A DNA stretch of 64,000 nt from an uncultured Bacillaceae bacterium (GTDB lineage Bacteria; Bacillota; Bacilli; Bacillales; Bacillaceae_L), in the NCBI GenBank assembly GCA_947497585.1, contig CANMHG010000013.1:13568-77567 (forward strand), read 5' to 3'. The notes beneath the pieces are model-generated. The model saw nothing but the letters and a program-made list of their open reading frames with translations. It made no database searches and was not told the DNA's origin. Below are positions 9 to 16,955 of this stretch, one piece after another; within the stretch, counting starts at the first letter, position 1; each line of letters starts with the position of its first letter. The translations under genes and the position numbers were made by a program.

Positions 9-935
9 TTATTCCCCCTGATTAATGGTTGATATGATTAATGAATATAATTCTTGAGCCGTAAATCGGTTTATTGGTCTACGTATTTGGTAAAGTTGAA
101 TATTATTGACAAAACTTGTCGTAAAAGTAAAATGCCATTCCAATAAGCCAGAAGGTTCTAGAAAGAAATTACGGTAGGTATGATAATACAATACTTGCAA
201 GCGTTCTAGACTATTAATAGGTTGTATATCAATAAGTTCATTTTCCGTCTTTGTTAATTCATACACTCCAGCTAGTGGGAGTTGCTTAGTTGCAAATTGA
301 GAATGAACTGGTATGGCAAACTTTGTTTCTCGCTCAATAATCGGGCGCAAACCGTCGAGCTCGATTCCAAATTCCTCAAGACTATTTTTCCATAGCTTTT
401 GTTGTGGATAAGCTGGTGTTACGACAGGAACATTTCCTTCAGTAAGCATAACTGGTATGACATCATCACTAATAAGCTGGTGGCCCCTATTTAGAAATGC
501 TGTTGCAAGCGTTGACTTTCCTGCACCAGAATCGCCAACAATTGCATATGCCTTTCCATTAACTTCTATTGCACTACCATGTAATGGTAGTATTTTTCGT
601 TGTAATAAGATTAACCCCATACATGTACCAAGTATATATAGCCTTAGCTGGTCTTCATGTACATTCTCCATTGGTGATACTAATATTTCTTTTCCTTCTT
701 TTACTAGGAAAATAGCTACATTTGGTATTTTAAACATTATCGTATCTTTATCCATACAGTAATAATTATTGTTTTCGCCTACTTCAAACCAGTCTTTTGA
801 TAGATTAGAATATTTAATTTCAATATCCACTTGAAATCCTTGTTTTTGAACTGAATAGAGTTCAGGTAGAAGGATTTCACTACTTATATTTAACCCAAAC
901 GCTGTGAAATCTGCACTTAATAATGTATCTTTCAT
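9..935 (-). CDS. Lasso peptide kinase, HPr kinase-like (PadeK type)
   Basis: LHGSA motif and Walker A GDSGAGKST; xxSDD motif; directly downstream of a lasso precursor ending in Ser, as in paeninodin-type clusters. Confidence 0.85.
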   Translation of the reverse strand: MKDTLLSADFTAFGLNISSEILLPELYSVQKQGFQVDIEIKYSNLSKDWFEVGENNNYYCMDKDTIMFKIPNVAIFLVKEGKEILVSPMENVHEDQLRLYILGTCMGLILLQRKILPLHGSAIEVNGKAYAIVGDSGAGKSTLATAFLNRGHQLISDDVIPVMLTEGNVPVVTPAYPQQKLWKNSLEEFGIELDGLRPIIERETKFAIPVHSQFATKQLPLAGVYELTKTENELIDIQPINSLERLQVLYYHTYRNFFLEPSGLLEWHFTFTTSFVNNIQLYQIRRPINRFTAQELYSLIISTINQGE

Positions 936-1022: not shown

Positions 1023-1196
1023 TTAGCTACCACCTAATAAATCAGGATGTACACATGCTTTATTTATCTTACCGTCGGGGTCAATATTTGGATGCGAACT
1101 CGTGCAATAACTATCTGAAACTGCTTCACCATCACCACCCATTGTCATACCAATATTAAGTACTTCTAAAACTGGCTGTTTCCATGATTTTCTCAT
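1023..1196 (-). CDS. Lasso peptide precursor A1, 57 aa: MRKSWKQPVLEVLNIGMTM / GGDGEAVSDSYCTSSHPNIDPDGKINKACVHPDLLGGS
   Basis: Hand-translated, not in ORF track. WxxPxLEVL leader, Thr at -2, Gly1, Asp9, C-terminal Ser; ATG overlaps the cyclase stop (TAATG). Confidence 0.92.
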   Translation of the reverse strand: MRKSWKQPVLEVLNIGMTMGGDGEAVSDSYCTSSHPNIDPDGKINKACVHPDLLGGS

Positions 1197-3163
1197 TAAA
1201 TCACCCCCTTTCTTCTAGTCTTTCTAATAAATCGATAGAGAACTAGAGCACGTGTTAACACTCTAAAATCATCTTTTAATACGAAATCCTGTTGAGGTAC
1301 CTCACTGTACTTAGGGATTAAATCTTTTATTACTTCTATATTGATTAGATCTTCTATTATAGGATCTCTAATAAGTTGTTGAAGTTCATCAATAAATGCC
1401 TTCCAAGTAGGAGTCATTCGATGTATTAGGTCTGCAGACTGCATACCTCGGCTTTTGTTGTTTAACCTAACCATATCTGGAAGATAGTGTCGGGTTGCTC
1501 GCCTAATTAATGAGCGATCCAACCCTCCTTTTGTATATTGTTCATTAGGTATAGATAAACAAAAACGTATCACTCTAATATCATTAGTTGGGTCTCGGTC
1601 CCATAATGAATATCTTAATGACAATTTCGTTGTTGCATTTCCTGTCTTATTCCAAGAATATAGTTTTGCAAAATGCTCATTTCTACCAATAAATGGTTTT
1701 CGACTAGATTCTTCTGTATGATTAACTCCATAATTTGCTAGCTTTTCATTTATGTTTGTTTTATTTGCTAATAAAGGATGAAGTAAGGATGGGAATCGGT
1801 AATCATCCTGATTATCATTATTAAAAATATTTGTAATAGAAGGTAAACTCCTCTTCACCAAAACTGGAAGAATAGTTGATTTTCCTGTATTGAAATTTTC
1901 ACAATACAGATCTAATTCTCTATATAATCTAAGCCACCTAAGATTCCTAAATAAATCTGTATAGTAATCTAAGTTGCACATGATAGAACCCCAAGAGATT
2001 GAAAAATTCCCTCTTGCTCCATTCAAGAGTACTTTAATTCCACTTTGCTGTGCCTTCTCATTTATCCCCATCAACCAAAACGAGTTTTCAAAAAATTTAT
2101 ATGGCATTTCCATAATATCTAGAAACTCGTCTAACTCTGTTAGTGGATTCCTGCCTTCAAAGTTTAAATAATGGTCAGTAATATTCCCCACTTGATTAAC
2201 GGTTTCCTTAATAAACGGTCGTTCATCAGCAATTAGATATTTTGAAGTCCAATCAACAAAGTCATTTGAGGGTATGTAACTAAAGGTGTATAATCTTTTG
2301 TTCTCTTTACACAGTTCCTTAGAGGCAAAACTAACGACAGATCCTGAATCTAAACCTCCACTTAGCTGCGCACCAACATTCCCAAAGGTACGTAGTCTAT
2401 CCTTAACAGCTCTTTCAAAAACTTCTCTAAAGGCCTCTTCATATTCACTATCTGATTTAAGTTTAATCATCTTGCAATCAACAACATTGCAATATTGAGA
2501 AATTCTTACTTTACCATTCTTAATAGAGATGGAATGTGCCGGAGGTATTTGCTTAATATCTTTATAGACAGTGGAGAGTGTATCGACTGATTCCACCATA
2601 CTAGGTATTGCTAAAAACTCTGCTAACCATTCCTCATTAAGCTCTTTACTAACATAGGGAAGAGAAAACAATGGTTCAATAGTCGTGGAAAAGGCAAATC
2701 GATTGTAGTCATTGAAAAAATATAGAGTTCTTGCTCCAGAAAAATCTCTTGCTCCAAAGAGAGTCCGCTCAATTTCATCCCATATGACGAATACAAAATC
2801 CCCTACCAAATGCTTTGGAGAGTCTTCTCCCCACTTTCTGTATGCTAGTAAAATTAATTTACTATCCGTCATTAGTGCTCTTTTCTCTTTTCGAACATCT
2901 AGCTTTTCAAACAATTCATTACGGTTATCAATAATACAATCTGATGTTATATATAGATTAGTTTCATAGTCATAATACGGTAGTTTTTCATTAACTGATT
3001 CAGGAGTGATCCATTGTGCGTGGCAACCAAAGAACAGATTCCCAGTATGAATCATATGGATATCATCCGCAGGAAACTGCTTGAACACCCTCATTAGTTC
3101 TTTAGTTTGTACAAGGTTAATAGGCTCTTGACTAAAATGAATTAGACCAGCGATTGCACTCAT
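1196..3163 (-). CDS. Lasso peptide cyclase C1 (asparagine synthetase-like, PadeC type)
   Basis: Starts MSAIAG, lacking the AsnB catalytic Cys; LSGGLDSG ATP motif; adjacent to precursor; start reassigned to ATG 3163 after GGAGG. Confidence 0.9.
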   Translation of the reverse strand: MSAIAGLIHFSQEPINLVQTKELMRVFKQFPADDIHMIHTGNLFFGCHAQWITPESVNEKLPYYDYETNLYITSDCIIDNRNELFEKLDVRKEKRALMTDSKLILLAYRKWGEDSPKHLVGDFVFVIWDEIERTLFGARDFSGARTLYFFNDYNRFAFSTTIEPLFSLPYVSKELNEEWLAEFLAIPSMVESVDTLSTVYKDIKQIPPAHSISIKNGKVRISQYCNVVDCKMIKLKSDSEYEEAFREVFERAVKDRLRTFGNVGAQLSGGLDSGSVVSFASKELCKENKRLYTFSYIPSNDFVDWTSKYLIADERPFIKETVNQVGNITDHYLNFEGRNPLTELDEFLDIMEMPYKFFENSFWLMGINEKAQQSGIKVLLNGARGNFSISWGSIMCNLDYYTDLFRNLRWLRLYRELDLYCENFNTGKSTILPVLVKRSLPSITNIFNNDNQDDYRFPSLLHPLLANKTNINEKLANYGVNHTEESSRKPFIGRNEHFAKLYSWNKTGNATTKLSLRYSLWDRDPTNDIRVIRFCLSIPNEQYTKGGLDRSLIRRATRHYLPDMVRLNNKSRGMQSADLIHRMTPTWKAFIDELQQLIRDPIIEDLINIEVIKDLIPKYSEVPQQDFVLKDDFRVLTRALVLYRFIRKTRRKGVI

Positions 3164-3210
3164 GATATCCTCCAACCCAAAGATAAATTAACTATACAGC
3201 ACACCCTTTT

Positions 3211-3226: not shown

Positions 3227-3252
3227 ACTACCTCAAAAAAATTTCACTGTAA

Positions 3253-4476
3253 CTATTGTTCGTTCTTTATAAGTATGGACATTGATGACAGATTCGTAAG
3301 ATTATTTTTTGTTAAATAATCAATTATTGGATTTTTATCAAACGTATGATGTTCCACATTTCTTGAAAATGTTTGAAATAGCTTTACTACTATACTAACG
3401 TTAAAGTCTTCTTTATGATAAGCCAATAATCCTATAGTCTTCATTTTCAATAATGAATAATTGACAACTAGCATACTATACATTTCAAATACATCATTTT
3501 CTTTTGCTACTGGAAATAGATTTTTAAACATGTAGTTCACTAGGTAATTTTCAAAAATATATTCATGTTCTCTTATAAAGGGCTTAAAAAATGTTTCATA
3601 GGTATTCATGTAATCTTCTATACTCGACTCGTCTAGAGTTGGACCAGTAAATTTTATTCCATCTAATGATTCCATTACGCATTCCAAGTATCTTTTATCT
3701 TTAAGACCCGTGAAAATACCTATATCTACAATCTTCCTTAGAATCTGTATCTGATTATTTAAATCTAAGGGCAAATCATGGATCCTGTTAATTATTTCAC
3801 CACTATCAATTAATTGTTCGTAATTTCCTATTATATCAGTTATTTCATTATCTACTAACTTTATTAGGATTTCTTCCATAAACACTCCCAGTATTAGTAA
3901 CCGATCAGTCAAACTATACTTTCTATTTTGTACTATTTTTATTGAAAAATCTCTTAGTTCTAGAAAATAGTAGCGTTCTTTATGGGTACTTTCATATTTA
4001 GATGAATTTATCTTTCTTGATACCAAGTGACGGGTACTGGTTGATTCATTTATTTCTTCAAACTGAATCCCATTTGAATTGAGTAGCACAGTACGAGCTG
4101 CCTCTGGACAAGACACTGTTAATGAACTCTCAAGTCCCCCATTTACAAGGGATGTCACACGAGGGTATGTTGCACATAAATTTGAAAGATAGCCTTCTCC
4201 TTTATCAATATGCACACTACATAATTTTTCCTCAGTAAGTAAAGGACATAACGATTGTGAATTTAGAATAATCTCAGCAAACCATTCTTTGTTTGATTTA
4301 AACTCTATTTTTTTCAGAGATTTCTTTAACTTTTCATTTGATGATACCTGGTATTTCTCATAGGTATCTTGGTCAATTGTAATCCTCCATCCTGAGCAAC
4401 ATGTATCTTCACATGAAGAACCAACACATGAGAATTGTTTTAGATATTGAGGGACTCGAATGGTACGAGTTGACAT
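3253..4476 (-). CDS. FliB-family (flagellin lysine N-methylase-like) Cys-rich Fe-S protein
   Basis: FSCVGSSCEDTCCSGWRITID, CPLL..LCSVH, CATYPR, SCPEA; C-terminal ENYLVNYMF..LFP pattern typical of FliB. Confidence 0.75.
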   Translation of the reverse strand: MSTRTIRVPQYLKQFSCVGSSCEDTCCSGWRITIDQDTYEKYQVSSNEKLKKSLKKIEFKSNKEWFAEIILNSQSLCPLLTEEKLCSVHIDKGEGYLSNLCATYPRVTSLVNGGLESSLTVSCPEAARTVLLNSNGIQFEEINESTSTRHLVSRKINSSKYESTHKERYYFLELRDFSIKIVQNRKYSLTDRLLILGVFMEEILIKLVDNEITDIIGNYEQLIDSGEIINRIHDLPLDLNNQIQILRKIVDIGIFTGLKDKRYLECVMESLDGIKFTGPTLDESSIEDYMNTYETFFKPFIREHEYIFENYLVNYMFKNLFPVAKENDVFEMYSMLVVNYSLLKMKTIGLLAYHKEDFNVSIVVKLFQTFSRNVEHHTFDKNPIIDYLTKNNLTNLSSMSILIKNEQ

Positions 4477-4548
4477 TCATTCTTTCCTTTCTGGGTAAGT
4501 ATTACTTTTACACTTACTCCTTTATTGTAACTTACCTACGGAACGTCT

Positions 4549-4646
4549 TTTCACTATAAAGAACTAGTTTGACAATATCTCGTCAAAATTATTCTTTATT
4601 AAGAACAATATATGTTAAAAATATCATCTTAAAGCTTAGGTGTCAA
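4549..4646 (-). promoter_or_regulatory. sigma-A promoter for the FliB-like gene with two downstream SinR-type boxes
   Basis: TTGACA (4641-4646), 17 nt, TGa-TATTTT (4618-4623); boxes at 4591-4606 and 4549-4564. Confidence 0.65.
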
Positions 4647-4715
4647 TAATAAATGGGCTTTTAAAAAGGAAAAAGGAAAATTATTATTGGGGGTAAGAGG
4701 GACTCTATAGACAAG

Positions 4716-4739
4716 GCCCCTAATTATATTTCTAGGGGC
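4716..4739 (-). terminator. Stem-loop after precursor A2
   Basis: GCCCCTA-N10-TAGGGGC; no strong U-tract. Confidence 0.4.
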
Positions 4740-4767
4740 TAGGTTTAAGAATGCTGGGTATAGAAAC

Positions 4768-4917
4768 TTAACTATCAATATCGTTTCCCCATGTTAAATC
4801 ACTAAATCTTGTGTTAGCAGGGAATGAATCATCGATAAAGTCTCCGGGTTGTGTATTCGCCATCGTCAAGTTTACATCTAGTACCTCAAGAACAGGCTTT
4901 ATCCATTCTTTTTTCAA
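4768..4917 (-). CDS. Lasso peptide precursor A2, 49 aa: MKKEWIKPVLEVLDVNLTM / ANTQPGDFIDDSFPANTRFSDLTWGNDIDS
   Basis: Hand-translated, TTG start after AAAGGAGGTG; paeninodin-like leader WxxPxLEVLDV..TM; C-terminal Ser; immediately after cyclase C2. Confidence 0.92.
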   Translation of the reverse strand: MKKEWIKPVLEVLDVNLTMANTQPGDFIDDSFPANTRFSDLTWGNDIDS

Positions 4918-4932
4918 ACCTATCACCTCCTT

Positions 4933-6876
4933 TCAGGTAAACATTTTATTAATAAATTTATATACTATAAGACTTCTCATTAATATCCTATAATCAGGGT
5001 CGGTCGCGTTTTCTACTCGTGGGCCATTTTCAGCCTTACTAATTGCTACATTTAAGACTTTGGCGTCTATAAATTCAAAAATAAGGTTATCTTTCTTTAG
5101 TTGTTGTATGTCCTTTATATATAATCCCCAATTTGGTTTCATTCGATGAACCCAATCTGCTCCTTGAACTCCACGAATATGTTGGTTTAGTCTGATTTTA
5201 TCTGGCAAATAACTCTGTGTAGCTCTTCGAATAAGAGCACGGTCCATACCATTTTGAACATACTGGTCTTCAGGTAGTGATAAGCAAAAACGAATAACAC
5301 GAATATCATTTGTTGGATCTCGTTTCCAAAGAGAATAACGCAAAGAAAATTTTGTGGAAACTGTATTTGTAGCATTCCAATGAAATACATCTTCAAAGTG
5401 ATTTTTTCTTTGCTTAAAAATATTATCAGTAGAGTACCATCCCGTTTCATCCATACCAAATTTTCTAAGTTTATCGAATACCCTAGTTCGATTTGCAAAT
5501 TCTTGGTTAATTATCTTGGGACTTTTATATTGAGTGGTAAGTGGAAACAACCGATCAATCATAGGAAACGCTTCTCTTACAATAATGGGTAACCTTCTTA
5601 ATCTAGCACCGCCTATATTTTGACTATAATAATTTAATTCTTTAATAAGGCGAAACCACTTCATTTTTTTAAGTAGTATTGCATAATATTCTATTGCCGA
5701 CCCCCAAGAAACACCTAAGTTCCCTCTTCCGCCATTTAAAAGAACTCCAACATTCTCTTTTTGAGCATTCTCAAACATTCCCTTTATCCAAAACGAGTTT
5801 TCAAAAAACTTGTAGGGCATCTCCATTGTTTCTAAAAAATCATCCAATTCCGTGTATGGGCTTTTCCCTTCAAAATCTAAATAATGTGCCTTGACATTTC
5901 CTACATAATTAACTGTTGATTCAATGAAAGGTCGTTCATTAGGCATTAAATATTTTGGGGTGTAATCTATAAAATCAGTGGTTGGAATATAACTAAAAGT
6001 TTGTAATTCTTTTCCTAGTAGTTGTAATTGTTTTGCTGCAAAGCTTACAACTGCTCCAGAATCAAGGCCTCCACTTAATTGAGCCCCCACTTTATGAATA
6101 GTACGTAATCGAGATTTAACAGCTTTACTAAAGACTTCTTGGAAGGCTTCTACATACTCTTCATTAGAATTTAATTTTAATGGTTTGCTGGCATATAAAT
6201 TACAATATCTCTTAATCTTTACCGAATCTCTAGTAATTGAAATAAAATGAGCTGGTGGAATTTGTTTTATATCTTGGTAGGGTGTCATAGAGGAATCAAT
6301 TGTATCTATCACAGTAGTAATTGCTAAATACTCTGCTAACCATTTTTCATTTAATTGTCTCGTTACATCAGGCTGTGTAAGTAACGGTTCTATTGTTGTA
6401 CAAAAAGAAAAGTTCTGATGATTATGACGGTAATAAAGTGTTCTTCCCCCTGAAAAGTCTCTTGCTGCAAATATAGAGTGTGCCCTTTCGTCCCAAATGA
6501 CATATGCAAAGTCACCAACTAGATATTTTGGTGATTCCTCACCCCACTTTTCGTAGCCTCGCAAAATTAACTGACTGTCAGGTATCGATTTCTCTAGTAT
6601 CGGATCGATCTTCAGTAGACCAAATAGTTCTTCACGATTATCAATAATTGCATCAGATACTATTGCGAGCTTTCTCTCGTAATCATAGAAAGGGAGGCTT
6701 TCACCGATTGATTCAGGAGTAATCCATTGCATATGACAACCTAAGAAGACTGTATTATTATTCCACGTTTGAATGTCATCGGCTGGATATCTTTTTAAGG
6801 ACTCCATTAATCTAGTACCATTTTCTATTCGAATAGGTTGCTTATTTAGATGTATAATTCCTGTTATTGCACTCAT
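4933..6876 (-). CDS. Lasso peptide cyclase C2 (asparagine synthetase-like, PadeC type)
   Basis: MSAITG start without catalytic Cys; LSGGLDSG; collinear with C1 (MPYKFFENSFW, RDPTNDIRVIRFCLS shared). Confidence 0.9.
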   Translation of the reverse strand: MSAITGIIHLNKQPIRIENGTRLMESLKRYPADDIQTWNNNTVFLGCHMQWITPESIGESLPFYDYERKLAIVSDAIIDNREELFGLLKIDPILEKSIPDSQLILRGYEKWGEESPKYLVGDFAYVIWDERAHSIFAARDFSGGRTLYYRHNHQNFSFCTTIEPLLTQPDVTRQLNEKWLAEYLAITTVIDTIDSSMTPYQDIKQIPPAHFISITRDSVKIKRYCNLYASKPLKLNSNEEYVEAFQEVFSKAVKSRLRTIHKVGAQLSGGLDSGAVVSFAAKQLQLLGKELQTFSYIPTTDFIDYTPKYLMPNERPFIESTVNYVGNVKAHYLDFEGKSPYTELDDFLETMEMPYKFFENSFWIKGMFENAQKENVGVLLNGGRGNLGVSWGSAIEYYAILLKKMKWFRLIKELNYYSQNIGGARLRRLPIIVREAFPMIDRLFPLTTQYKSPKIINQEFANRTRVFDKLRKFGMDETGWYSTDNIFKQRKNHFEDVFHWNATNTVSTKFSLRYSLWKRDPTNDIRVIRFCLSLPEDQYVQNGMDRALIRRATQSYLPDKIRLNQHIRGVQGADWVHRMKPNWGLYIKDIQQLKKDNLIFEFIDAKVLNVAISKAENGPRVENATDPDYRILMRSLIVYKFINKMFT

Positions 6877-6904
6877 AATTTTTTCTCCCTGACTAACTTA
6901 TGAT

Positions 6905-7044
6905 TTTCACTATAAAGAACAATAGTTAATTTAAACACAAGGATAATTTATAAATTTCAAGTTAATTATCTTTAGTTCCAATAATTTTGTTCTTTATAAG
7001 GAACATCTTCATTTAAAGTTAACACTTTTTCTGAACAGTGTCAA
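6905..7044 (-). promoter_or_regulatory. sigma-A promoter for cyclase C2 with two downstream SinR-type boxes
   Basis: TTGACA (7039-7044), 17 nt, TGt-TAACTT (7016-7021); boxes at 6989-7004 and 6905-6920. Confidence 0.65.
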
Positions 7045-7120
7045 TATTTCAGTTATTAGGAATAGGCCAAAAGGCGAATCAGAAGAAGCTATATTTTTGA
7101 TGGTTATTGGAGAATATAAT

Positions 7121-7146
7121 AGACACTCAAACTAAGATGAGTGTCT
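7121..7146 (-). terminator. Probable terminator at the end of the EPS locus
   Basis: AGACACTCA-N8-TGAGTGTCT. Confidence 0.5.
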
Positions 7147-7180
7147 AAATACCTAATAACAAATTTTATTAACTATTAAT

Positions 7181-8260
7181 TTATAAAACGATATGGTCGA
7201 GGGTTCCTCTTAGAACTTCATTCTCTGTAGTCAATACCGGTTCTCTATCCATATCCCTAATCCATAGTAACCCATCCGGAAGAGGATTAAACTTCGTATC
7301 AAGCGCAGGAAACTTATTGTACAGAATAATATCTTTATAGATCTCAGGCATATTTAATCCTGCTTCTGTAAAGAAATAACATGTCGTAAAAAAGCGCATA
7401 TTTATCTCAGTAGGGTTAGGGAAATCATTTCTGTCATACGTCATATCCACACCGTATACTCCATGAGGCTTCTTATCAATCGCATATATTGTTTCCATAG
7501 CTACTTTGTTCACTGTTTCATCTGAGTAAGTCTCACCTACCCCAGTTATTCCAGTCACACCTGATAGTGTCCGATTACCAAATCCCCAGGACTTTCTTCT
7601 TCTAGTTTGGGCTACAACTAGCTCGCCTTCATACCAAATAGATAACCAAGTAACCGTCTTATCAGACTGGAGTAACTCTGAAGCAGTAAAACTTCCCCAA
7701 CCGTTATAGATATCTATCCAGTTTTGAGCAAACTCATAATCATTTGTAGGTAGTGCTCCTCTTCCACCAGCACCTACTGTAGATCTTAACCAGATTTTCC
7801 CCTCTTCATCTCCTAGATCTTGAAAAGCTTGTTTTAATTCATGTTTATCTCGAATAGGCAGTGTTTTTGGCACCTTAATACCTGTAGCTTCCCAAACCTT
7901 ATAGGATTTATATTTATCTGTACATGCTTCAATCACATCATGATCTGGCATAAATAACTTTGTACCTGTAGCTGTGATTTCATCTCGAAATCTTGAGGCT
8001 TCGAGTATTTCTCTATCATTCATAAAAACAGCTAAACTAGGTTTATCATTATTCATAATACCCAGTAATTCTTTTTTATAATCTTTTCCGAATGCATATT
8101 CATATGGGATGTGTCGCTTAGTTTCAGCCTTCGAAGTATACAAATTATAAGGATTCCTTGATAACCCTATTACTTCGTTCCTAATTTCCGCCTTATTCCA
8201 CGATTTTATAACATTCTCTGCTGGCGAAACCCCGACATCAGTTATTAGTATTTTCTCCAT
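7181..8260 (-). CDS. ATP-grasp (carboxylate-amine ligase-like) protein
   Basis: DKYKSY..W, IKVPKT, GAGGRG loop, GVDMT...TEINMRF pattern. Confidence 0.75.
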   Translation of the reverse strand: MEKILITDVGVSPAENVIKSWNKAEIRNEVIGLSRNPYNLYTSKAETKRHIPYEYAFGKDYKKELLGIMNNDKPSLAVFMNDREILEASRFRDEITATGTKLFMPDHDVIEACTDKYKSYKVWEATGIKVPKTLPIRDKHELKQAFQDLGDEEGKIWLRSTVGAGGRGALPTNDYEFAQNWIDIYNGWGSFTASELLQSDKTVTWLSIWYEGELVVAQTRRRKSWGFGNRTLSGVTGITGVGETYSDETVNKVAMETIYAIDKKPHGVYGVDMTYDRNDFPNPTEINMRFFTTCYFFTEAGLNMPEIYKDIILYNKFPALDTKFNPLPDGLLWIRDMDREPVLTTENEVLRGTLDHIVL

Positions 8261-8278
8261 TTCAGCACCTCTTTATAA

Positions 8279-8893
8279 TTATAGATTCCTAGATATTCCC
8301 TTGTACCTTTCCATACTGAAGTGATTCTTTGAACTTACTCCTTCTTTTTTAAATACCTTTTTTATTGTTACTAGTAAAATTTTCATATCCAGCCAAACAG
8401 ATTGATTATTAACATACCAGATATCTAATTCAAATTTTTCTTCCCAGTTAATTGCATTCCGTCCGTTTATTTGAGCCCAGCCAGTTATCCCGGGTTTGAC
8501 TTCATGTCTTCGAGCCTGTTCTTCGGTATACAAAGGTAAATACTCCATTAATAATGGACGGGGACCTACTAAACTTAAATCACCCTTAATGACATTGAAT
8601 AGTTGTGGTAACTCATCTAAACTATATTTACGTAACAAGATTCCTAGTTTGGTTAATCTGTATTTTCCAGGTAATAGATTGCCTTGATTATCTTTCTTAT
8701 CATTCATTGTTCTAAACTTATATATATATAAAGGCTTTCCATATAAACCTGGTCGGACTTGTTTAAATAATATTGGTGAACCCATCTTTATATAAATAAT
8801 TGCGGAAATCAGAATTAAAAATGGCGAAAAAATAATGACTAATGATAGGGCACCAAATAAATCTATTAATCTTTTCAAAGTATCCACCTCCAT
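8279..8893 (-). CDS. Priming sugar-phosphate transferase (EpsL/PglC family)
   Basis: KRLIDL, FKQVRPG, YKFRTM, SLDELPQL, VGPRP, KPGITGWAQ. Confidence 0.92.
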   Translation of the reverse strand: MEVDTLKRLIDLFGALSLVIIFSPFLILISAIIYIKMGSPILFKQVRPGLYGKPLYIYKFRTMNDKKDNQGNLLPGKYRLTKLGILLRKYSLDELPQLFNVIKGDLSLVGPRPLLMEYLPLYTEEQARRHEVKPGITGWAQINGRNAINWEEKFELDIWYVNNQSVWLDMKILLVTIKKVFKKEGVSSKNHFSMERYKGISRNL

Positions 8894-8919
8894 AACATTA
8901 CTTTGAAAAATATTTTAAG

Positions 8920-9750
8920 TTAATTTATATCTCTTTCTCTAACTCGGTTTAAGGGATGATTGTAGAGGAAAAAGTATTGTCTTCTCTTTTCGATATATTT
9001 AGGAGTCATGATCTTTATTTCTTTTCCTTCTACTACATTGATTGCATTACTTTGTAGGAATTCTCTATACCTTGATGAATAATGTAGTTCTATAAAATCA
9101 TAGGCTTCAGTTAACTCGAACTTTCGCCTTGTGTAATGATGTGCATCAGATGCTACGAAATGAACAAGTTCATGATCTAGGAGATGTCTAGAAAAGTTTT
9201 TCAACCTATTCCCATGCAGTCCTAATATACTTGCAGCTGTTACTTGTATAAGTATTCCACTTTGTACAAGCTTATAAATTTCAGAGGGATTTTTTCTTAG
9301 AATTCTATTTCTCTCCGGGTGAGCAAGAATTGGAAGAAACCCCATTTCTTTTAACTGGGAGAAAACATCTACTATATATGATGGATAATTTTTAGAATGT
9401 GGCTCCATCAATAAGTATTTTCCTGTGTTATTTAATGTTAAAAAACTATCGAGCTTTTCTTCTAAATCATATTGAATTTCTTCATGTAAATGAAATTCAA
9501 TTCCTGGCATTACAACTAAAGGGATATTTTTCTCTTGCAATAATTGATTTAGTTTATCAACCATTTTTATTATAGTAGCAGGATCATTTTCGTAAAAATA
9601 CTGATGGTGTTGATGTTTATGATGTGGAGTTGCAATCACATGTGTTATTCCTGTCTCTACGGCTTGTTTGGCCAACAATATTGCTTCTTCCCAATCATGT
9701 GGACCATCATCTAGTCCAGGTAAAATGTGGTTATGAATGTCCACAATCAT
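8920..9750 (-). CDS. PHP-family tyrosine-protein phosphatase (CpsB/YwqE type)
   Basis: DIHNHILPGLDDG, ATPHH, AHPERN, ASDAH; start reassigned to ATG 9750 after AAGGAG. Confidence 0.9.
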   Translation of the reverse strand: MIVDIHNHILPGLDDGPHDWEEAILLAKQAVETGITHVIATPHHKHQHHQYFYENDPATIIKMVDKLNQLLQEKNIPLVVMPGIEFHLHEEIQYDLEEKLDSFLTLNNTGKYLLMEPHSKNYPSYIVDVFSQLKEMGFLPILAHPERNRILRKNPSEIYKLVQSGILIQVTAASILGLHGNRLKNFSRHLLDHELVHFVASDAHHYTRRKFELTEAYDFIELHYSSRYREFLQSNAINVVEGKEIKIMTPKYIEKRRQYFFLYNHPLNRVRERDIN

Positions 9751-9800
9751 TTTCTTGCTCCTTTCGAAAAACACTAACAAACCCCCACAAAGAACAACAG

Positions 9801-9816
9801 GTTCTTTATAAAGAAC
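9801..9816. promoter_or_regulatory. SinR-type operator
   Basis: Perfect palindrome GTTCTTTATAAAGAAC upstream of the phosphatase. Confidence 0.65.
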
Positions 9817-9847
9817 AATACTATACTATTACTTTTATTGCAATACC

Positions 9848-10603
9848 TTATTCATAAATTGCATTTGCATATTTTCTCTTAAAAAGACATACTCCTGCAT
9901 TTTCTAATATTTTTACCATTAATTCAGAATTAGGATAGTTTATTTCTTTATAAAGATTTATTACCTTATTCAAATCATATTGAACTCTCACTATTGAAGT
10001 TTGAACACAATCTTCCTCAATATCAACGAGAGCATAGGATGATTGATTCACACCATCAAATGGAAGCCCAACACTTCCTATATTTATTATACATTTCCCA
10101 TTTATGTATCTTATATATGGCTTATGTATATGTGCATAGATATATATATTTGCATTATTGCTCATTAACTTTTCAGTTAGTAAATCATCACTTTCTTGTG
10201 GTGAAACGATTTCAAATAAGCTTTTAGGTGTGGCATGGAATGCATGAATTTTAGCTCTACCAAATTCTAATTCTAATTCGGTTGGTAGATTTTCAAGGTA
10301 GCTAACATCTTTAGACTCTAGTTTAGAGACAGTCCATTCTCTTTCGGTACTCATTATTTCTAATGCTGAATCAGGAACCTCACCTTGCCTAATTCCACGA
10401 ACCACCCATTCATCTGCGTTACCTTTTATTACTTCGGTATTTAAGGTTCTAACTAAATCAAGTGACTTTTTAGGTTCTGGTCCCCTAAAGCACAGGTCTC
10501 CTAAAACATAAACTTTGTCAACGTTTCTTTCTTTAATATCCTTCAATACCGCTTCTAATGCTGTTGCATTTCCATGAATATCTGAAATAAATGCTAGTTT
10601 CAT
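9848..10603 (-). CDS. Metallophosphoesterase
   Basis: SDIHGN, LGDL, GNAD, FHA, AHIH, GSVG motifs. Confidence 0.88.
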   Translation of the reverse strand: MKLAFISDIHGNATALEAVLKDIKERNVDKVYVLGDLCFRGPEPKKSLDLVRTLNTEVIKGNADEWVVRGIRQGEVPDSALEIMSTEREWTVSKLESKDVSYLENLPTELELEFGRAKIHAFHATPKSLFEIVSPQESDDLLTEKLMSNNANIYIYAHIHKPYIRYINGKCIINIGSVGLPFDGVNQSSYALVDIEEDCVQTSIVRVQYDLNKVINLYKEINYPNSELMVKILENAGVCLFKRKYANAIYE

Positions 10604-10633
10604 TTGTTGTACCCCATTTCTAAAAATACTTTA

Positions 10634-10665
10634 AGGAGATGGTCCCCTTTTTTAGACCACCTCCT
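10634..10665 (-). terminator. Internal terminator-like hairpin
   Basis: On the minus strand AGGAGGTGGTC-N10-GACCATCTCCT (11 bp with one G.U), then an A/U-rich tract. Confidence 0.5.
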
Positions 10666-10722
10666 ATGAATTTTAGACTTTATACCACATTCGTATACTT
10701 AGAATTTCTTTATTAGATTATT

Positions 10723-11874
10723 TTAGATATTTATTGGTGCCTTATTAATTGTTTCATACCACGCAGTTAATGCCAGGCTTTCAGGTAACTCAACATCATC
10801 AAAAGTTATCATTTCTCCTGCTTCAACTTCCCTTTTCAACACTGCATTTACAAGCAACCCAATCGGAACATGGTTAGCATTGGTAGCAATTTTAACTGCA
10901 ACTCCTCTTACTTGGAAACTTCCAATGCCTTTCTCGATTGTCTCACCTAGTTGGAGTGTTCTTTTAGCAATTGCTGCAACACTAATAGTAGGATTTTCAC
11001 CATTGTTTAATAGAACTCCACCACCATTAATGACACGTCTAATCGTTTTCATAATTTCTAAATGACATAGATGGTAGTTTTGTAGAATTGTGTAGTAAGG
11101 ACCTTCTCCCATTTTATAGTAACGAAGGGCATCTTTTTGTCGAATATCGTGTTCTGCTGTGATAAAAACTCCTGGAGGAGCTTTAGGTGCTAAAACATAT
11201 TCACAAATTGGATAACCTAAACTATTAGCCTCTATTGCTAACTCCTCTCCAGTTTCATTTAAATTATCTGAACTCGGAGAAAGTAAGCCATTAACTGCTA
11301 TTCCCGCCCCAAGACCATTTGCTACTAGTGCTTGTTCAATTTGCACTTTTGTCCCATCAGTGAAGGATGTTGTCATATCAAGTCTTACACCATTTCGATT
11401 TGACCAATATTCCATATCCTCACGTTTTGGATCTAGGTTTAGAAATCCTTTAATATTTCCATAAACCAACGGCTTGAAGCCCATTTGAACAACATTTTCA
11501 TGTAGTGAAGCTAAGCAACCTGGTTGATCTCCTTCAGCCTCCGTAATAAATCCTCTTCTAGCAAAATATGAACCGGTTGTTACTTGAAGCTCTGCATTCA
11601 TTGTTACAACTGGTTTAGATGCTTTGATGGCTTTATCAATGACTTCCGTTCCATAGATAACATCCCCACTACATTCAACAATTAAGTCGCACTCTTCAAT
11701 AAACTCTTCCATAGAATTTGTAAGAACTTCGGAAAATGGATATTCCATAGTGTTTATATCACGGCGAGTGAGCACCTTTGATAAAATTAAGTCGGTTTGC
11801 TTCTCCACTTCAAAGGCTAAGCCCTTACCAATTAAACCTGTTCCAGCTATACCTATTCTAGTTAATTTATCCAC
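10723..11874 (-). CDS. NAD(P)-dependent oxidoreductase, homoserine dehydrogenase-like with C-terminal SAF domain
   Basis: GIAGTGLIG, AEGDQPG, DGTKVQIE, C-terminal SAF-like segment; GTG start after GGAGG. Confidence 0.75.
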   Translation of the reverse strand: MDKLTRIGIAGTGLIGKGLAFEVEKQTDLILSKVLTRRDINTMEYPFSEVLTNSMEEFIEECDLIVECSGDVIYGTEVIDKAIKASKPVVTMNAELQVTTGSYFARRGFITEAEGDQPGCLASLHENVVQMGFKPLVYGNIKGFLNLDPKREDMEYWSNRNGVRLDMTTSFTDGTKVQIEQALVANGLGAGIAVNGLLSPSSDNLNETGEELAIEANSLGYPICEYVLAPKAPPGVFITAEHDIRQKDALRYYKMGEGPYYTILQNYHLCHLEIMKTIRRVINGGGVLLNNGENPTISVAAIAKRTLQLGETIEKGIGSFQVRGVAVKIATNANHVPIGLLVNAVLKREVEAGEMITFDDVELPESLALTAWYETINKAPINI

Positions 11875-11909
11875 TAATATTCCTCCATCTGGTACCATGA
11901 CCACAAACT

Positions 11910-11925
11910 ATTCATTATAACGAAC
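11910..11925. promoter_or_regulatory. Degenerate SinR-type operator
   Basis: ATTCATTATAACGAAC in a short intergenic gap. Confidence 0.45.
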
Positions 11926-11941
11926 AATTCCGCAAAAAAAA

Positions 11942-13006
11942 TTATTTTGTCGAAACAAGTGTATCCACTGTTTCACTACTTTCAATTTCTAAAATTCCAC
12001 CATACATATCTACCTGTTTCATGATGCTTTGCCATTTAATTAATTCTTTATACCAGTTTAAGGTTATTGTTTGTTCTGACTTCTTAAGGTTACCACTCTC
12101 TAATGCTTTATAAATTTGTAAAGCCCCGTCAGCTGCGGTATATTTTGCTTCCCAATTTAAAAGTTTTTCGATTTTATCAAAATTCACACGATATGAACGA
12201 TGATCTGGGTCACCGTACCACTCAATCTTTACTTCAATAGGTAGCGCTTCTGCAATTTCTTCCGCTAAAGGTCCTAATTGATAGTTGTTTCGGTTTGATC
12301 CTACATTCAATATTTCACCATTAATTATTTGTCCATCAGCTTCTAGTAATAAGCACATAACATCAGTTGTATCTTCAACGTGTACCATAGGTCTCCACTG
12401 TGAGCCATCTCTCATTAATGGAATAACACCATTCTCCCATGCACCATAAGTCATTCCATTGATGGCTAAGTCAAATCTCATTCTTGGTGAATACCCATAA
12501 ACAGTTGCTTGCCTCATTACCACAACAGTAAAATCTTGATCAGCTAACGGAAGAACTCCTTGTTCAGCTTTTTCATTTGCTTTTGCATAAACGGTTAATG
12601 GATTAGTAGGTGATGTTTCGTCAACAATTACGTCCTTATCCTGGAATCCATAAAGACTGCATGAAGATGGTAAAATGTAACGCTCTACCCCCATTTTCTT
12701 CGCTAAAGTTGCTGTATTTACTCTAGATAAGTGATTCACTTCATATGTAACCTCTTTAAACAATTCCCCACTCGGATCGTTCGAAATTGCTACTAAATCA
12801 ATAACTGCATCAACATCTACAAAATGTTCTTCCTTTAATCTTCTACAATCTTCATGAACAATTGTTAGATTAGGATGTGGTTGAAGCTTATCGACACCAA
12901 AGTAAAAACGATCAACCGCTTTAACCTCATAGCCTTTTGCTAACAACTTTGGAACTAAAATGCTACCAATATAGCCACCTGCACCTGTAACAAGTATATT
13001 TTTCAT
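11942..13006 (-). CDS. Extended SDR, NAD-dependent epimerase/dehydratase
   Basis: TGAGGYIG, ISNDP, R.ATVYG.SPRMRFDL; YAKAN in place of YxxxK. Confidence 0.85.
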   Translation of the reverse strand: MKNILVTGAGGYIGSILVPKLLAKGYEVKAVDRFYFGVDKLQPHPNLTIVHEDCRRLKEEHFVDVDAVIDLVAISNDPSGELFKEVTYEVNHLSRVNTATLAKKMGVERYILPSSCSLYGFQDKDVIVDETSPTNPLTVYAKANEKAEQGVLPLADQDFTVVVMRQATVYGYSPRMRFDLAINGMTYGAWENGVIPLMRDGSQWRPMVHVEDTTDVMCLLLEADGQIINGEILNVGSNRNNYQLGPLAEEIAEALPIEVKIEWYGDPDHRSYRVNFDKIEKLLNWEAKYTAADGALQIYKALESGNLKKSEQTITLNWYKELIKWQSIMKQVDMYGGILEIESSETVDTLVSTK

Positions 13007-13018
13007 TTAATTTCCCCC

Positions 13019-14251
13019 CTATGAAATGTTTTCATTTACATTTTCTTTTTGTCGACCTTGTTTAACTACTATTTGATCCACTACATATCTTGAAAAAGGA
13101 AATGCGCATGTGAATCCTGGTGAAACAGCATTTAAGATATGAAAAGATTGTTGATCTCCTTCAACCACAAAATCTTGTACGAGCTCTAGAGTATCCTTGT
13201 TTAGAAGTTGTGCACGGATACCTGGTCTCATAAACTGCCCAAATCCGTTTTTATCTACTTTCTTTACCATTTTTAAAGATAAATTAATAAAATATGATTT
13301 CATATACTTTCTCATTTCTTCAATAGCAAGTGAACGGAAGTTAAAAGAGTTGTTTATAAAAAGCTTTGCTTCATAATATAAAATGGTCATAAACTCGTTT
13401 AAGTTAAAATTTTTCAACCCGCTGTAGTTTTCTCTCCAAAATGCAGGGATAGCGGTCGGTCCAATTTTAATCGAATCATCCACTGTTTTTGTAAAATGAA
13501 CGCCTAAAAATGGATTTGCTAAATTAGGAACTGGATAAATATTAGTTAACACATCCGTCTTGTTTTTTGCATATTTCAAATAGATTCCTTTAAATGGAAT
13601 AATTGTGTACTTCTCTCCGAACTTAAAATCCTTAGCGATTTTATCTGCATACAATCCTGCTGCATTTATAAAGTAATTACAACGAAAAGATCCCTTGCTA
13701 GTTTTAATTTCATCATTAGATTTCCCAAGGTATTGTGTATTACGAATTATATCGACCCCTAGATTAATTACATCTGTTTTAATTGATTTGCATACCTCTA
13801 TAGGGTCAACAGAAGATGTAGACGGTGAATAGAGTGCTTTTTTATACGTTTTTACATTGGGATCAATTTTTCTTACCTCTGATTCTTTCACCCAGTTTAA
13901 CTCTACTCCATTTTTCTCTGCTCTCTTTTTTAATTCTACTAACCCGTTTAATTCTTCCTCATTTGTTGCAACCACAAGTTTCCCGCACTTGTTAATTTTC
14001 AGACCCTTTTCCTCACAATACTTAGTCATCTCTCGGTTTCCATCTCTAGTAAACTTAGCTTTCAAGCTATTAGCCGAATAATAAAATCCAGCATGTAAAA
14101 CCCCGCTATTTCTTCCGCTTGAGTGAAATGCAACATCAGATTCCTTTTCTATAATGCAGATAGAATTTTTCGGGAAACGAGTCTTCAATTCCCTCGCGAT
14201 GGATAAACCAATGATTCCTCCACCTACTATAATGTAATCATAGAACTTCAT
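13019..14251 (-). CDS. FAD-dependent oxidoreductase, L-2-hydroxyglutarate oxidase (LhgO)-like
   Basis: VGGGIIG, SGRNSGVLHAG, YPVP...PFLGVHFT, GIRAQ, NAVSPGFT. Confidence 0.85.
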   Translation of the reverse strand: MKFYDYIIVGGGIIGLSIARELKTRFPKNSICIIEKESDVAFHSSGRNSGVLHAGFYYSANSLKAKFTRDGNREMTKYCEEKGLKINKCGKLVVATNEEELNGLVELKKRAEKNGVELNWVKESEVRKIDPNVKTYKKALYSPSTSSVDPIEVCKSIKTDVINLGVDIIRNTQYLGKSNDEIKTSKGSFRCNYFINAAGLYADKIAKDFKFGEKYTIIPFKGIYLKYAKNKTDVLTNIYPVPNLANPFLGVHFTKTVDDSIKIGPTAIPAFWRENYSGLKNFNLNEFMTILYYEAKLFINNSFNFRSLAIEEMRKYMKSYFINLSLKMVKKVDKNGFGQFMRPGIRAQLLNKDTLELVQDFVVEGDQQSFHILNAVSPGFTCAFPFSRYVVDQIVVKQGRQKENVNENIS

Positions 14252-14822
14252 GGACTTCCTCCATTTTGGGCTTATAAGTAAAATTTATTTCTGCATCTTT
14301 AAACATTGGCTGTTCCGTATCCTTTTCAGACAAAATTGGCGTTAAAGTCGGCCATTCAATTCCAAGTGTTGGGTCATTCCATAAAATTCCTTTATCGTTT
14401 TCAACTGAATAATATTCGTCAACCTTATACTGAACATGTGTATTGTCTGTGAGTGTACAGAATCCATGAGCAAAACCTTTTGGTACTAAGAGCATTCGGT
14501 GGTTCTCTTCTGTTAATGTTACACCTACCCACTGCCCATAAGTTGGTGAACCTAATCGAATATCAACAGCAACATCATATATTGCTCCAGTAATAACTCG
14601 AACAAGCTTTGTTTGTGCTCTTGGATTTAATTGATAATGTAGACCACGAATAACATCCTTACCTACTGAAAGTGAGTGATTATCCTGGATAAAATTGAAA
14701 TTCAAACCAAGCTCAGAAAACGTTTTATGATTAAAACTCTCCATAAAAAATCCTCGATTGTCTTTAAAAACCTTTGGTTCAATAATTTTTACACCATCAA
14801 GTTTTGTATCTAGTATTCTCAT
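14238..14822 (-). CDS. rfbC: dTDP-4-dehydrorhamnose 3,5-epimerase
   Basis: DNRGFFMES, QDNHS, RGLHYQ, VPKGFAHGF. Confidence 0.93.
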   Translation of the reverse strand: MRILDTKLDGVKIIEPKVFKDNRGFFMESFNHKTFSELGLNFNFIQDNHSLSVGKDVIRGLHYQLNPRAQTKLVRVITGAIYDVAVDIRLGSPTYGQWVGVTLTEENHRMLLVPKGFAHGFCTLTDNTHVQYKVDEYYSVENDKGILWNDPTLGIEWPTLTPILSEKDTEQPMFKDAEINFTYKPKMEEVHEVL

Positions 14823-14857
14823 GTTTCATTCATCCAATCTATAAGGTTAATGTTTTA

Positions 14858-15760
14858 CTACTTAACAAGTTCAATTTCTTTCTCTTTGTGTTTATTCATT
14901 TCTACTAGTCTAAGTAAATATTGACCATACTCACTTTTCTTTAATGGCTCTGCTAATTCTAATAACTTCTCTTCGGAAATATAGCCTTTGTTATAAGAAA
15001 TTTCCTCCAAGCAAGCTACTTTCAAAAGCTGACGTTTTTCTATAATTTCAATAAATTGGGATGCCTCTAACAATGATTCGTGTGTTCCTGTATCAAGCCA
15101 TGCAAACCCACGACCTAGTAATTCCACCTTTAACTTATCTCTTCTTAGATATTCATTTAAAATATCTGTAATTTCTAACTCCCCTCTAGCAGATGGCTTC
15201 ACACCTTTTGCAATCTCAACAACTTGATTGTCAAAGAAATAAAGGCCAGTAATGGCATAATTTGATTTAGGGAAAATTGGTTTTTCTTCAATGGACATTA
15301 CTTTTTTATCAGAATTAAACTCTACTACACCAAATCGTTCTGGGTCCCTAACATTGTAACCAAATATTGTAGCTCCATTAAGTTGTTTAGTTACCCTTTC
15401 AAGAGTAGAAATAAATTCATGCCCATAGAAGATATTGTCACCCAGAATTAAGCTAACATCATCTGCACCAATAAACTCCTCACCAATGATAAAGGCCTCA
15501 GCTAAACCATTCGGCTTTTCTTGTATCGAGTAGGATAATTGGATACCTAATTCACTTCCATCACCTAACAATTGTTCAAAACGTGGAACATCCTCTGGTG
15601 TAGATATAATTAAAATATCTTTGATACCTGCAAGCATTAACACTGAAATTGGATAATAAATCATAGGTTTATCATAAATAGGAAGTAATTGCTTTGATAT
15701 AGATCTTGTTAATGGATACAACCTTGTTCCGCTTCCACCTGCTAAAATGATTCCTTTCAT
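14858..15760 (-). CDS. rfbA: Glucose-1-phosphate thymidylyltransferase
   Basis: [47 protein letters not shown]. Confidence 0.96.
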
Positions 15761-15811
15761 CGTAGGACCACCTCATCAATTTTTTATATAAAATTTAAAA
15801 AACACCTCAAA

Positions 15812-16813
15812 TCAATTGAGGTGCTGCTTTTGATTTAATTTGGTTTTTGCGTCTCGAATAAACTCATAAATAGCTGGATTTATACTAAATAACACACACA
15901 TTAATTTCTGTCTAAAACTTAAATCTTTAAGCTTCAATAAATGAATTATACTATTATCAAATGTTCTTTTGAGCATTTTTAATTCTTTATTAACATCTGT
16001 TAGGTTTGTTTTAGCCATATAATAGTACCAAAAAAACACTTCCATATAATGCTTTAATGCCTTTTGGTGAAGTTCTGATTCCTTTTTGTTTCTAAAAAAT
16101 TCCTCTCTACCTTTTAAAGCATATACCCTACCAAACTTCTTGGTGGAAAAAGGGGAATTTATTTGACTACCTTTTCTTTTAACATAGTAATATAGTTCAC
16201 TTTGAATATATGTGACTTTATTACTTCTATAAAGAAGCTTGTGGGCTATAGTTTCATCATCATAGATGTTACCATGTTCGTATTTTATTTCATCAAATAA
16301 ATATCTCTTGTAAAGTTTGTTCCAAGGGTAAATGAAAGTATCTTTTTCCATATTCTTATAGATGAAATGTAATGCTTCCTTATTACTAAAGTTTTGGAGA
16401 CTATAATCAGAATTGAACACCTCTGTATCAATGAACTGGTCTTCTTCAACTTTTAGATAATCGCATACTACAGTGTCGGATGAATGCTTTATAGCATTAT
16501 TAAATAGTTCTTCAAACATATATTTATTTATATAGTCATCGTTATCTACAAAACCTATATATTCCCCTCTAGCTACCTCAAGTCCAGCATTTCGTGAAGA
16601 AGCAATTCCACCATTTTCTTTATGAATAACTCGAACTCTACTATCCAATCTTGCATATTCATCACAAAGTTCTCCACTATTATCTGTTGATCCATCATTA
16701 ACAAGGATTAACTCAAAATTTGTGAATGATTGAGATAAGATTGAATCAATGCACTGTGGTATATAACTTTCAAGATTGTATATGGGAACAATGATGCTTA
16801 TTCCAATATTCAT
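15812..16813 (-). CDS. Glycosyltransferase family 2
   Basis: SIIVPIYN, VNDGSTD, FVDNDD; start reassigned to ATG 16813. Confidence 0.9.
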   Translation of the reverse strand: MNIGISIIVPIYNLESYIPQCIDSILSQSFTNFELILVNDGSTDNSGELCDEYARLDSRVRVIHKENGGIASSRNAGLEVARGEYIGFVDNDDYINKYMFEELFNNAIKHSSDTVVCDYLKVEEDQFIDTEVFNSDYSLQNFSNKEALHFIYKNMEKDTFIYPWNKLYKRYLFDEIKYEHGNIYDDETIAHKLLYRSNKVTYIQSELYYYVKRKGSQINSPFSTKKFGRVYALKGREEFFRNKKESELHQKALKHYMEVFFWYYYMAKTNLTDVNKELKMLKRTFDNSIIHLLKLKDLSFRQKLMCVLFSINPAIYEFIRDAKTKLNQKQHLN

Positions 16814-16955
16814 AAAACACTTCCCCAATAAATTTGTAGTCAATTTACAGAACATAAAGAACATGTTAATTGATTAAGAGACTTAGTATACCTTTAAAAA
16901 TTAATAATCTATATCATTATTCCTGTTACTATCAAAGTATTATGGATTTTGATAG

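Follow-up and report, generated by a model that had tools for sequence, protein, structure and literature searches.

We propose, with moderate confidence, that the lasso peptide precursor A2 matures into a peptide with a 10-residue macrolactam ring between Ala1 and Asp10, both the ring size and the threading being predicted from comparisons with its relatives. The gene lies on the minus strand of the window, a 64,000-nucleotide stretch of DNA from an uncultured Bacillaceae bacterium. Lasso peptides have been characterized with rings of 7, 8, and 9 residues, and engineered fusilassin tolerates rings of 7 to 10 (June 2026 perspective, PMC13352647), which upholds the 7-to-9 range quoted as background in the initial annotation; the 10-mer ring of fusilassin has been called unnatural (cell-free biosynthesis preprint, bioRxiv 10.1101/2020.11.25.399105). 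Full-text literature searches, including those with core motifs and sequences, found no natural 10-residue lasso ring. Genes of the A2 type are already known, as they carry the NCBI paeninodin-family annotation; the prediction of a 10-residue ring was not found in the literature searched.

The A2 open reading frame (window positions 4768 to 4917, minus strand) is translated into a product of 49 residues, MKKEWIKPVLEVLDVNLTMANTQPGDFIDDSFPANTRFSDLTWGNDIDS. The TTG start originally assigned to it is borne out by the spacing of a GGAGG Shine-Dalgarno sequence and by the homologues, which begin at the equivalent residue (MKKEW or VKKEW, i.e., Met or Val). A GTG at 4926, three codons upstream in frame, was rejected as the start, since it overlaps the Shine-Dalgarno sequence; translation of 4768 to 4926 (minus strand) from this GTG to the stop gives VIGLKKEWIKPVLEVLDVNLTMANTQPGDFIDDSFPANTRFSDLTWGNDIDS. 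The TTG itself (4917 to 4915) comes 15 nt past the stop codon of the cyclase gene C2 (4935 to 4933). The gene and its flanking signals are as follows.

4768 to 4917, minus strand: A2 precursor gene, 49 aa plus stop, TTG start, identified by its NF033524 match and homologues
4926 to 4930, minus strand: Shine-Dalgarno sequence GGAGG, 8 nt before the TTG, by inspection of the sequence
4716 to 4739, minus strand: candidate terminator-like hairpin just past the A2 stop, with an 8-bp stem, 5 GC pairs, and a weak T tract

Against the NF033524 profile (paeninodin family lasso peptide), A2 scored 41.6 bits (cutoff, 27; E value, 7e-11), with a match that covers residues 2 to 26, that is, the leader and the first core residues (profile positions 1 to 23 of 30; the second precursor of the cluster, A1, covers positions 1 to 29). 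Homologues with 83 to 85% identity and the same gene order were found in Evansella and Fredinandcohnia, where NCBI labels them paeninodin-family lasso peptides. Given the family score, the adjacent cyclase, and the syntenic homologues, A2 is not a chance open reading frame, and by its sequence it is a genuine paeninodin-family lasso precursor. The hairpin on its 3' side matched a consensus scan alone and folded no better than shuffled sequences (z, -0.78). Just past it, upstream of the FliB-like gene, there is a strong sigma-70-like site (4618 to 4646, minus strand; TTGACA, 17 nt, TG-extended TATTTT; 10 of 12 matches). With the hairpin and this downstream site, C2 and A2 may form a transcription unit of their own.

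The lasso cluster is encoded entirely on the minus strand, in the order C2, A2, a FliB-family gene, C1, A1, and K, and continues beyond the left edge of the window with B1 (a PqqD-type RRE; NF033536, 122 bits), B2 (a transglutaminase-like protease; NF033537, 98.6 bits), a PsmN-like nucleotidyltransferase (N), and an ABC exporter (D). The cyclases, the second precursor, and the kinase are located as follows.

9 to 935, minus strand: kinase K, an HPr-kinase-like Ser kinase, common to both modules
1023 to 1196, minus strand: precursor A1, with a canonical Gly1-Asp9 core and an A2-type leader (NF033524, 41.7 bits)
1196 to 3175, minus strand: lasso cyclase C1 of the second module, 659 aa, with 52% identity to C2, in the clade of two-Cys-core cyclases
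4933 to 6876, minus strand: lasso cyclase C2, 647 aa, with the Pfam domains Asn_synthase and GATase_7, closely coupled to A2

C2 matched the lasso cyclase profile NF033535 with an E value of 6e-118 and 395 bits, under the curated 525-bit cutoff. The A1 core is canonical (GGDGEAVSD9..., with two Cys). Since K, B1, B2, and N each occur in a single copy in the whole 4.17-Mb draft genome (tblastn), A1 and A2 must share them. The setting of A2 is thus that of the paeninodin family, with an adjacent cyclase, split B1/B2, an HPr-kinase-like kinase, and an ABC exporter. Paeninodin itself (Paenibacillus dendritiformis, pade), the founding member of the NF033524 family that includes A2, shares the split B1/B2 and the HPr-kinase-like kinase, and its C-terminal Ser is phosphorylated (PMC6993621). 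However, the pade cluster has neither a second cyclase/precursor module nor N, and its ring, from the N-terminal Ala to an internal Asp, has 9 residues (PMC6993621), while the acceptor of A2 is predicted at position 10.

Some features of the surroundings deserve a comment. The gene between the two modules (3253 to 4476, minus strand) is a homologue of the FliB-family flagellin lysine-N-methylases (NF038110, 306 bits; cutoff, 85). A FliB homologue is found between the modules in the Fredinandcohnia locus as well (L004, 13318 to 14553) and is absent in Evansella. There is no Lys in the A2 core and there are two in the A1 core, which makes A1 the candidate should the enzyme have a lasso peptide as its substrate. 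On the other side, positions 7181 to 16864 (minus strand) hold polysaccharide and sugar-nucleotide genes (a Bac_transf sugar transferase, an ATP-grasp-like protein, a CpsB-like phosphatase, and epimerases), a flank repeated at the Evansella and Fredinandcohnia loci. This fits the published siting of the paeninodin-like clusters of Bacilli within capsular polysaccharide loci (PMC13381572).

To count ring residues, the N terminus of the core has to be placed. A2 divides into the leader MKKEWIKPVLEVLDVNLTM and the core ANTQPGDFIDDSFPANTRFSDLTWGNDIDS.

4861 to 4917, minus strand: A2 leader, with Trp-15, Pro-12, Leu-10, and Thr-2, in the register of PbaA

The leader of PbaA has been crystallized on its RRE, with K-18, W-15, P-12, L-10, E-9, V-8, and L-7 (PMC13381572; PDB 9X90), and A2 has the same residues at identical distances from its Thr-Met/Ala junction, as well as Thr at -2. 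In a gapless alignment of 15 precursors, the leader columns W5, P8, L10, E11, V12, L13, T18, and M19 were invariant. The A2 leader carries the WxxPxLEVL pattern with Trp-15 and Thr-2; that of paeninodin has YxxP. A precursor from locus L074, with the core AGPGKKIVDQVFEDEDERGELHHS, ties this register to a characterized peptide. Its core has all the positions given in the pseudomycoidin paper (K5, D9, Q10, F12, E13/15/17, and L21) except for Lys6 in place of Arg6, and it is preceded by the same W-15/T-2 leader ending in TM. In pseudomycoidin, an NOE between A1 HN and D9 H-beta supports a ring between Ala1 and Asp9 (PMC6993621), in keeping with the earlier remark that paeninodin-type rings use D9. 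We infer from the leader register that A2 is cleaved after Thr-Met, exposing Ala1. This register is fixed by the leader spacing of the family and by the single B1/B2 pair, which must also cut A1 at TM/GG. Cleavage after T3-Q4 was discarded, as it would leave Pro1 in A2 and no usable acceptor in relatives such as LGTD/GDYTD.

The resemblance to pseudomycoidin (Bacillus pseudomycoides, psmC-A-K-B1-B2-N-D) extends to the architecture of the cluster, N included, to Ala1 as the ring-forming residue, and to the C terminus: the C-terminal Ser of pseudomycoidin is phosphorylated and then glycosylated (PMC6993621), and A2 also ends in Ser. In contrast, A2 has Phe8/Ile9 and its conserved acceptor one residue later, the core sequences are otherwise unrelated, and the pseudomycoidin-type cyclase (L074) falls outside the C2-type clade.

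The core begins A1 N2 T3 Q4 P5 G6 D7 F8 I9 D10 D11, exactly the arrangement of D7, D10, and D11 around F8/I9 that was first described. At positions 7, 8, and 9, where characterized lassos have their Asp/Glu acceptor, A2 has a nonconserved Asp7, Phe8, and Ile9.

4771 to 4860, minus strand: A2 core, 30 aa, with a C-terminal Ser, by translation
4840 to 4842, minus strand: codon of core Asp7 (GAC), an unlikely acceptor, Asn in P0007/L032 and Glu in P0021/L010
4831 to 4833, minus strand: codon of core Asp10 (GAT), predicted to close the ring, the one acidic column invariant in both alignments
4828 to 4830, minus strand: codon of core Asp11 (GAT), variable, Ala in P0009, P0023, and P0032 and Asn in P0021

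A single-sequence search gave only two A2 homologues, in which all three Asp residues were invariant, so that it did not discriminate among them and a profile search built from 15 precursors was needed. We also gathered 80 loci with relatives of C2 (54 to 65% identity) and read the precursor that follows each cyclase. Among the 12 distinct close homologues (cores ending ...TWGxDS), position 10 was Asp in all 12, position 11 was Asp in 8, Ala in 3, and Asn in 1, and position 7 was Asp in 10, Glu in 1 (a Neobacillus), and Asn in 1 (Bacillus sp. MRMR6). When 15 more diverse relatives were aligned without gaps, D10, T17, L22, and T23 were invariant in the core and W24 nearly so, and Asp10 was the sole invariant acidic column. 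In relatives such as LNVKTPTKLDATF, LNPNSGNHLDHTY, and ANPHSGNHLDYTY, Asp10 is the only acidic residue within the first 12 to 13 positions. Asp11, replaced by Ala or Asn in four homologues, was rejected as an acceptor. The initial annotation offered an Ala1-Asp7 or an Ala1-Asp10 ring and proposed, among other checks, an alignment of homologues to reveal the invariant Asp; it is Asp10 (12 of 12 close and 15 of 15 wider relatives), Asp7 and Asp11 being variable, so the second alternative is favored and the first, with Asn or Glu in homologues, is not. Asn cannot be an acceptor and yet is found at position 7, which argues that Asp7 is not the acceptor of the family. At the other end, the A2 core finishes in ...NDIDS, and the C-terminal Ser, a putative phosphorylation site, is present in nearly all relatives.

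The largest Asp10-type subgroup is made up of ASTVWGPYTDEAY-type cores (e.g., L006, L013, L021, and P0114), in which Asp10-Glu11 is followed by AY and the tails are long and end in W-x-R-F-T-S. For this subgroup it is conceivable that position 10 or 11 provides the acceptor, with rings of 10 or even 11 residues.

The comparison with Asp9-type cores indicates where the additional residue lies. The cyclase lineage of C2 also serves Asp9 cores such as LGKDGDFTDATFPADTPRGKLTFS, and MAFFT lined up GDFID10DSFP of A2 with GDFTD9ATFP of the sister LGxxGxxTD cores and with AGPGKKIVD9, the single gap falling after core residue 2, inside the ring segment and not at the leader junction. Past the acceptor, short Asp10-type cores have 15 residues, as do Asp9-type cores, and the motifs D-x-x-[FY]-P-x-G-T...[LI]-T-[WF]-S are common to both classes. 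Judging from the equal length and shared motifs after the acceptor, the two types differ by one residue in the ring segment. Residue 1 is A in 27, L in 20, and G in 4 of the Asp10-type cores and L in 67, G in 6, and A in 2 of their Asp9-type sisters, so that residue 1 looks alike in the two classes. Fourteen positions past the acceptor, 48 of 54 Asp10-type cores have W (41) or Y (7), and Asp9-type cores have F in 61 of 77 and never W. In pseudomycoidin, the L21F change sufficed to keep a 9-residue ring threaded (PMC6993621). The association of a putative Trp/Tyr plug with Asp10 and of Phe with Asp9 is suggestive of a plug that grows with the ring, in a covariation that rests on only one or two evolutionary events.

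These data bear directly on the strongest competitor of the Ala1-Asp10 ring, in which a shifted cleavage or aminopeptidase trimming removes Ala1 and a conventional 9-residue ring closes between Asn1 and Asp9 in mature numbering. Cleavage after Ala1 was listed as a refuting case in the initial annotation. We regard this rival as unlikely, though it would keep the 7-to-9 rule (PMC13352647), and Asn1 as the ring-forming residue has one precedent in metanodin (PMC12670498). Cores of the C1 type, which belong to the same family, are also predicted to begin with Asn (NGPGNA..D9), and in Asp10-type cores residue 2 is frequently a conserved N, D, or S next to a variable residue 1. Pseudomycoidin can also mature without B1/B2 through host proteases (PMC6993621), so that B2 is not an absolute requirement for N-terminal processing. 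However, a shifted cut would place Thr at -3 instead of the near-universal -2, and A1 and A2 would need two different cutting registers from a single B1/B2 pair. Asp10-type and Asp9-type precursors are paired in six other loci (L002, L004, L019, L021, L030, and L060), and the same problem arises at least in L002 and L004, whose flanks contain one B1/B2 pair each. The alignment, moreover, sets the extra residue inside the ring, with Leu1, Ala1, or Gly1 in common with the Asp9-type sisters, and the difference between Trp and Phe plugs would be left unexplained. Finally, residue 2 is Asp in 16 of the 54 Asp10-type cores, all of which would then start with Asp. We know of no precedent for Asp as residue 1 of a lasso peptide.

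There is a small chance that A2 gives no lasso at all, being a decaying or regulatory precursor or a linear phosphorylated or glycosylated peptide, with C2 inactive on A2 or acting elsewhere. The precedent to consider is pba of P. alginolyticus DSM5050, which resembles A2 in family and leader register (K-18, W-15, P-12, L-10, and T-2) and whose gene set, C-A-K-B1-B2-N-D, lies inside a polysaccharide locus like the window cluster. Our precursor P0035, assigned by NCBI to P. alginolyticus (leader MKKEWLKPELEVLDVNQTM, core LDPKNGNHLDHAYTEGTPKDKLTWS), is, like A2, of the Asp10 type, and it has no Asp/Glu at 7 to 9, Asp2 and Asp10 being the only acidic residues close to its N terminus (LDPKNGNHLD...); it is probably PbaA, as it comes from a locus (L085) with an adjoining lpp-like cluster as in PMC13381572. 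The pba cluster differs from the one in the window in having one cyclase instead of two modules, and the A2 tail is longer (...TWGNDIDS). The study of PbaA covered leader-RRE binding only, and its product was not detected, P. alginolyticus yielding no ions that could be assigned to pba (PMC13381572); no product is on record for any Asp10-type precursor, the subfamily of A2. Linear polyphosphorylated peptides (LPPs) with similar leaders are encoded in the same genomes (PMC13381572). They are recognized by a YxxPxVLxHQxIxFETxxS leader, a SipW-like signal peptidase, and the lack of a cyclase (PMC13381572), while A2 has a WxxP leader without HQxIxFET and is accompanied by a cyclase and B2. In L085, directly upstream of the lasso cluster, positions 3232 to 7848 encode a 72-aa open reading frame, a ScmC/HprK-like kinase, PqqD, a 141-aa protein, an ABC transporter, and NTP_transf_5, matching the published lpp layout. 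Against a nonlasso fate for A2, C2 and A2 form an intact, closely coupled pair that is conserved at 54 to 65% cyclase identity over many genera, at least 14 loci have an Asp10-type core as the sole precursor beside an intact cyclase, and the core columns D10, T17, L22, T23, and W24 are strongly conserved.

Position 7 is acidic in 11 of the 12 close homologues, so Asp7 presumably has some role. The 7-residue rings known so far close on Glu7; with Asp7 the ring would lose one further atom. A 7-residue Ala1-Asp7 ring, with Asp10 kept for another role such as target or metal binding, is very improbable, even with the xanthomonins as examples of 7-residue rings (as cited in PMC13352647), for it would leave an unusually long 23-residue tail, Bacillus sp. 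MRMR6 has Asn7 despite the intact cyclase in its cluster, and the 54 distinct same-scaffold cores that go with the orthologous cyclase clade have N (19), D (18), T (6), P (4), or other residues at position 7, while Asp10 never varies.

The Ala1-Asp10 ring is favored because Asp10 alone is conserved, aligns with the Asp9 acceptor, and is displaced by a gap within the ring; residue 1 (A, L, or G) as in the Asp9-type relatives, set against the Asp1 that a shifted cut would require in 16 of 54 cores, and the wide and coherent distribution of the trait on the cyclase tree (see below) support it further. In the proposed mechanism, the single RRE protein B1 would bind the A2 leader via Trp-15, Pro-12, and Leu-10, and the single protease B2 would cut after Thr-2/Met-1 and expose Ala1. 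C2 would then activate the side chain of Asp10 and join it to the amine of Ala1, closing a macrolactam of 10 residues (ANTQPGDFID) ahead of a 20-residue tail, in which W24 of the invariant Leu-Thr-Trp is the likely plug. The C-terminal Ser would be phosphorylated by K, N would perhaps mediate glycosylation, and D would export the product. Such a ring is enzymatically feasible, since a variant with 10 ring residues is tolerated by the enzymes of fusilassin (DiCaprio et al. 2019, cited in both bioRxiv 10.1101/2020.11.25.399105 and PMC13352647). As described in those citing sources, that cyclase closes a 10-residue macrolactam on an artificial substrate derived from an actinobacterial peptide with a 9-residue ring, in contrast to a natural Asp10 lineage. 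A true lasso topology of the A2 product is uncertain, given that pseudomycoidin was isolated unthreaded (PMC6993621).

In the profile search, 57 of 120 distinct related cores had Asp10 and no Asp/Glu at positions 8 and 9, 40 of the 57 having none at 7 either, figures that come from a sampling seeded with C2 and Asp10-type precursors and are biased rather than a measure of prevalence. On a tree of 90 cyclases (FastTree), the label acceptor 9 or 10 required 2 changes, compared with 30.2 in shuffles. The Asp10 class (43 rows) arises within the C2-type clade, whose outgroups are Asp9 type, and a well-supported Asp9 clade (22 rows, with LGxxGxxTD cores) is nested inside it, although with midpoint rooting the direction of the changes between 9 and 10 is provisional. 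C2 itself belongs to no starred small clade and lies inside an 81%-supported group of 16 Asp10-type cyclases. We give about even chances to the broader proposal that a large Bacillaceae/Paenibacillaceae clade makes natural Asp10 rings, the ring size having gone from 9 to 10 and back to 9 in one cyclase lineage and the plug having changed along with it (Trp with 10, Phe with 9).

The initial idea that an unusual ring geometry could be the reason for a separate A2 cyclase is not supported by the distribution of the modules. The two-cyclase layout also occurs with two Asp9 precursors (L020, L026, L043, L046, L063, L077, L078, and L082), and Asp10-type precursors occur alone with one cyclase in the 14 or more loci counted above. 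C1-type and C2-type cyclases form two separate clades (support, 97 and 97), the former with long two-Cys cores and the latter with short Cys-free cores ending ...T[WF]S. Judged from the tree, the cyclase lineages track these two unrelated core families and not ring size. No residue cleanly tracking ring class was found in the cyclase alignment. Only one column, following RGN, separated the Asp10-type from the nested Asp9-type cyclases (Leu and Phe, respectively), alongside a Gly-versus-Asp change three residues earlier, and it was rejected as the determinant because the Asp9-type outgroups carry Leu/Met. The region is a very conserved motif, LLNG-x-RGN-x-SISWG (C2 residues about 380 to 392; window about 5701 to 5737, minus strand), with the variants G...L in Asp10-type, D...F in nested Asp9-type, and A...H or A...F in C1-type cyclases, the last having a 3-residue insertion after SWGS. 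In Domibacillus sp. PGB-M46 (L058, 4969 and 5226), two tandem, nearly identical precursors (LGEDGDFTD... and LGEDGDYTD...) follow one cyclase.

If Asp10 closes the ring, A2 would have a ring one residue larger than that of any lasso peptide characterized, breaking the 7-to-9 rule. This could also account for the pba product being missed at the predicted masses, which its authors attributed to an unknown glycosylation (PMC13381572). A sizeable share of the annotated paeninodin-family precursors (the 57 of 120 in our seeded profile search) would then make a ring size unseen in nature. Genome-mining heuristics such as RODEO score precursors on the assumption of 7-to-9-residue rings, and such tools would mis-score the Asp10-type precursors. 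Related 9- and 10-residue cyclases, some of them sharing one B1/B2 pair per cluster, would constitute a system for ring-size control and a natural series in which to follow how a lasso cyclase counts residues and how ring size relates to plug size.
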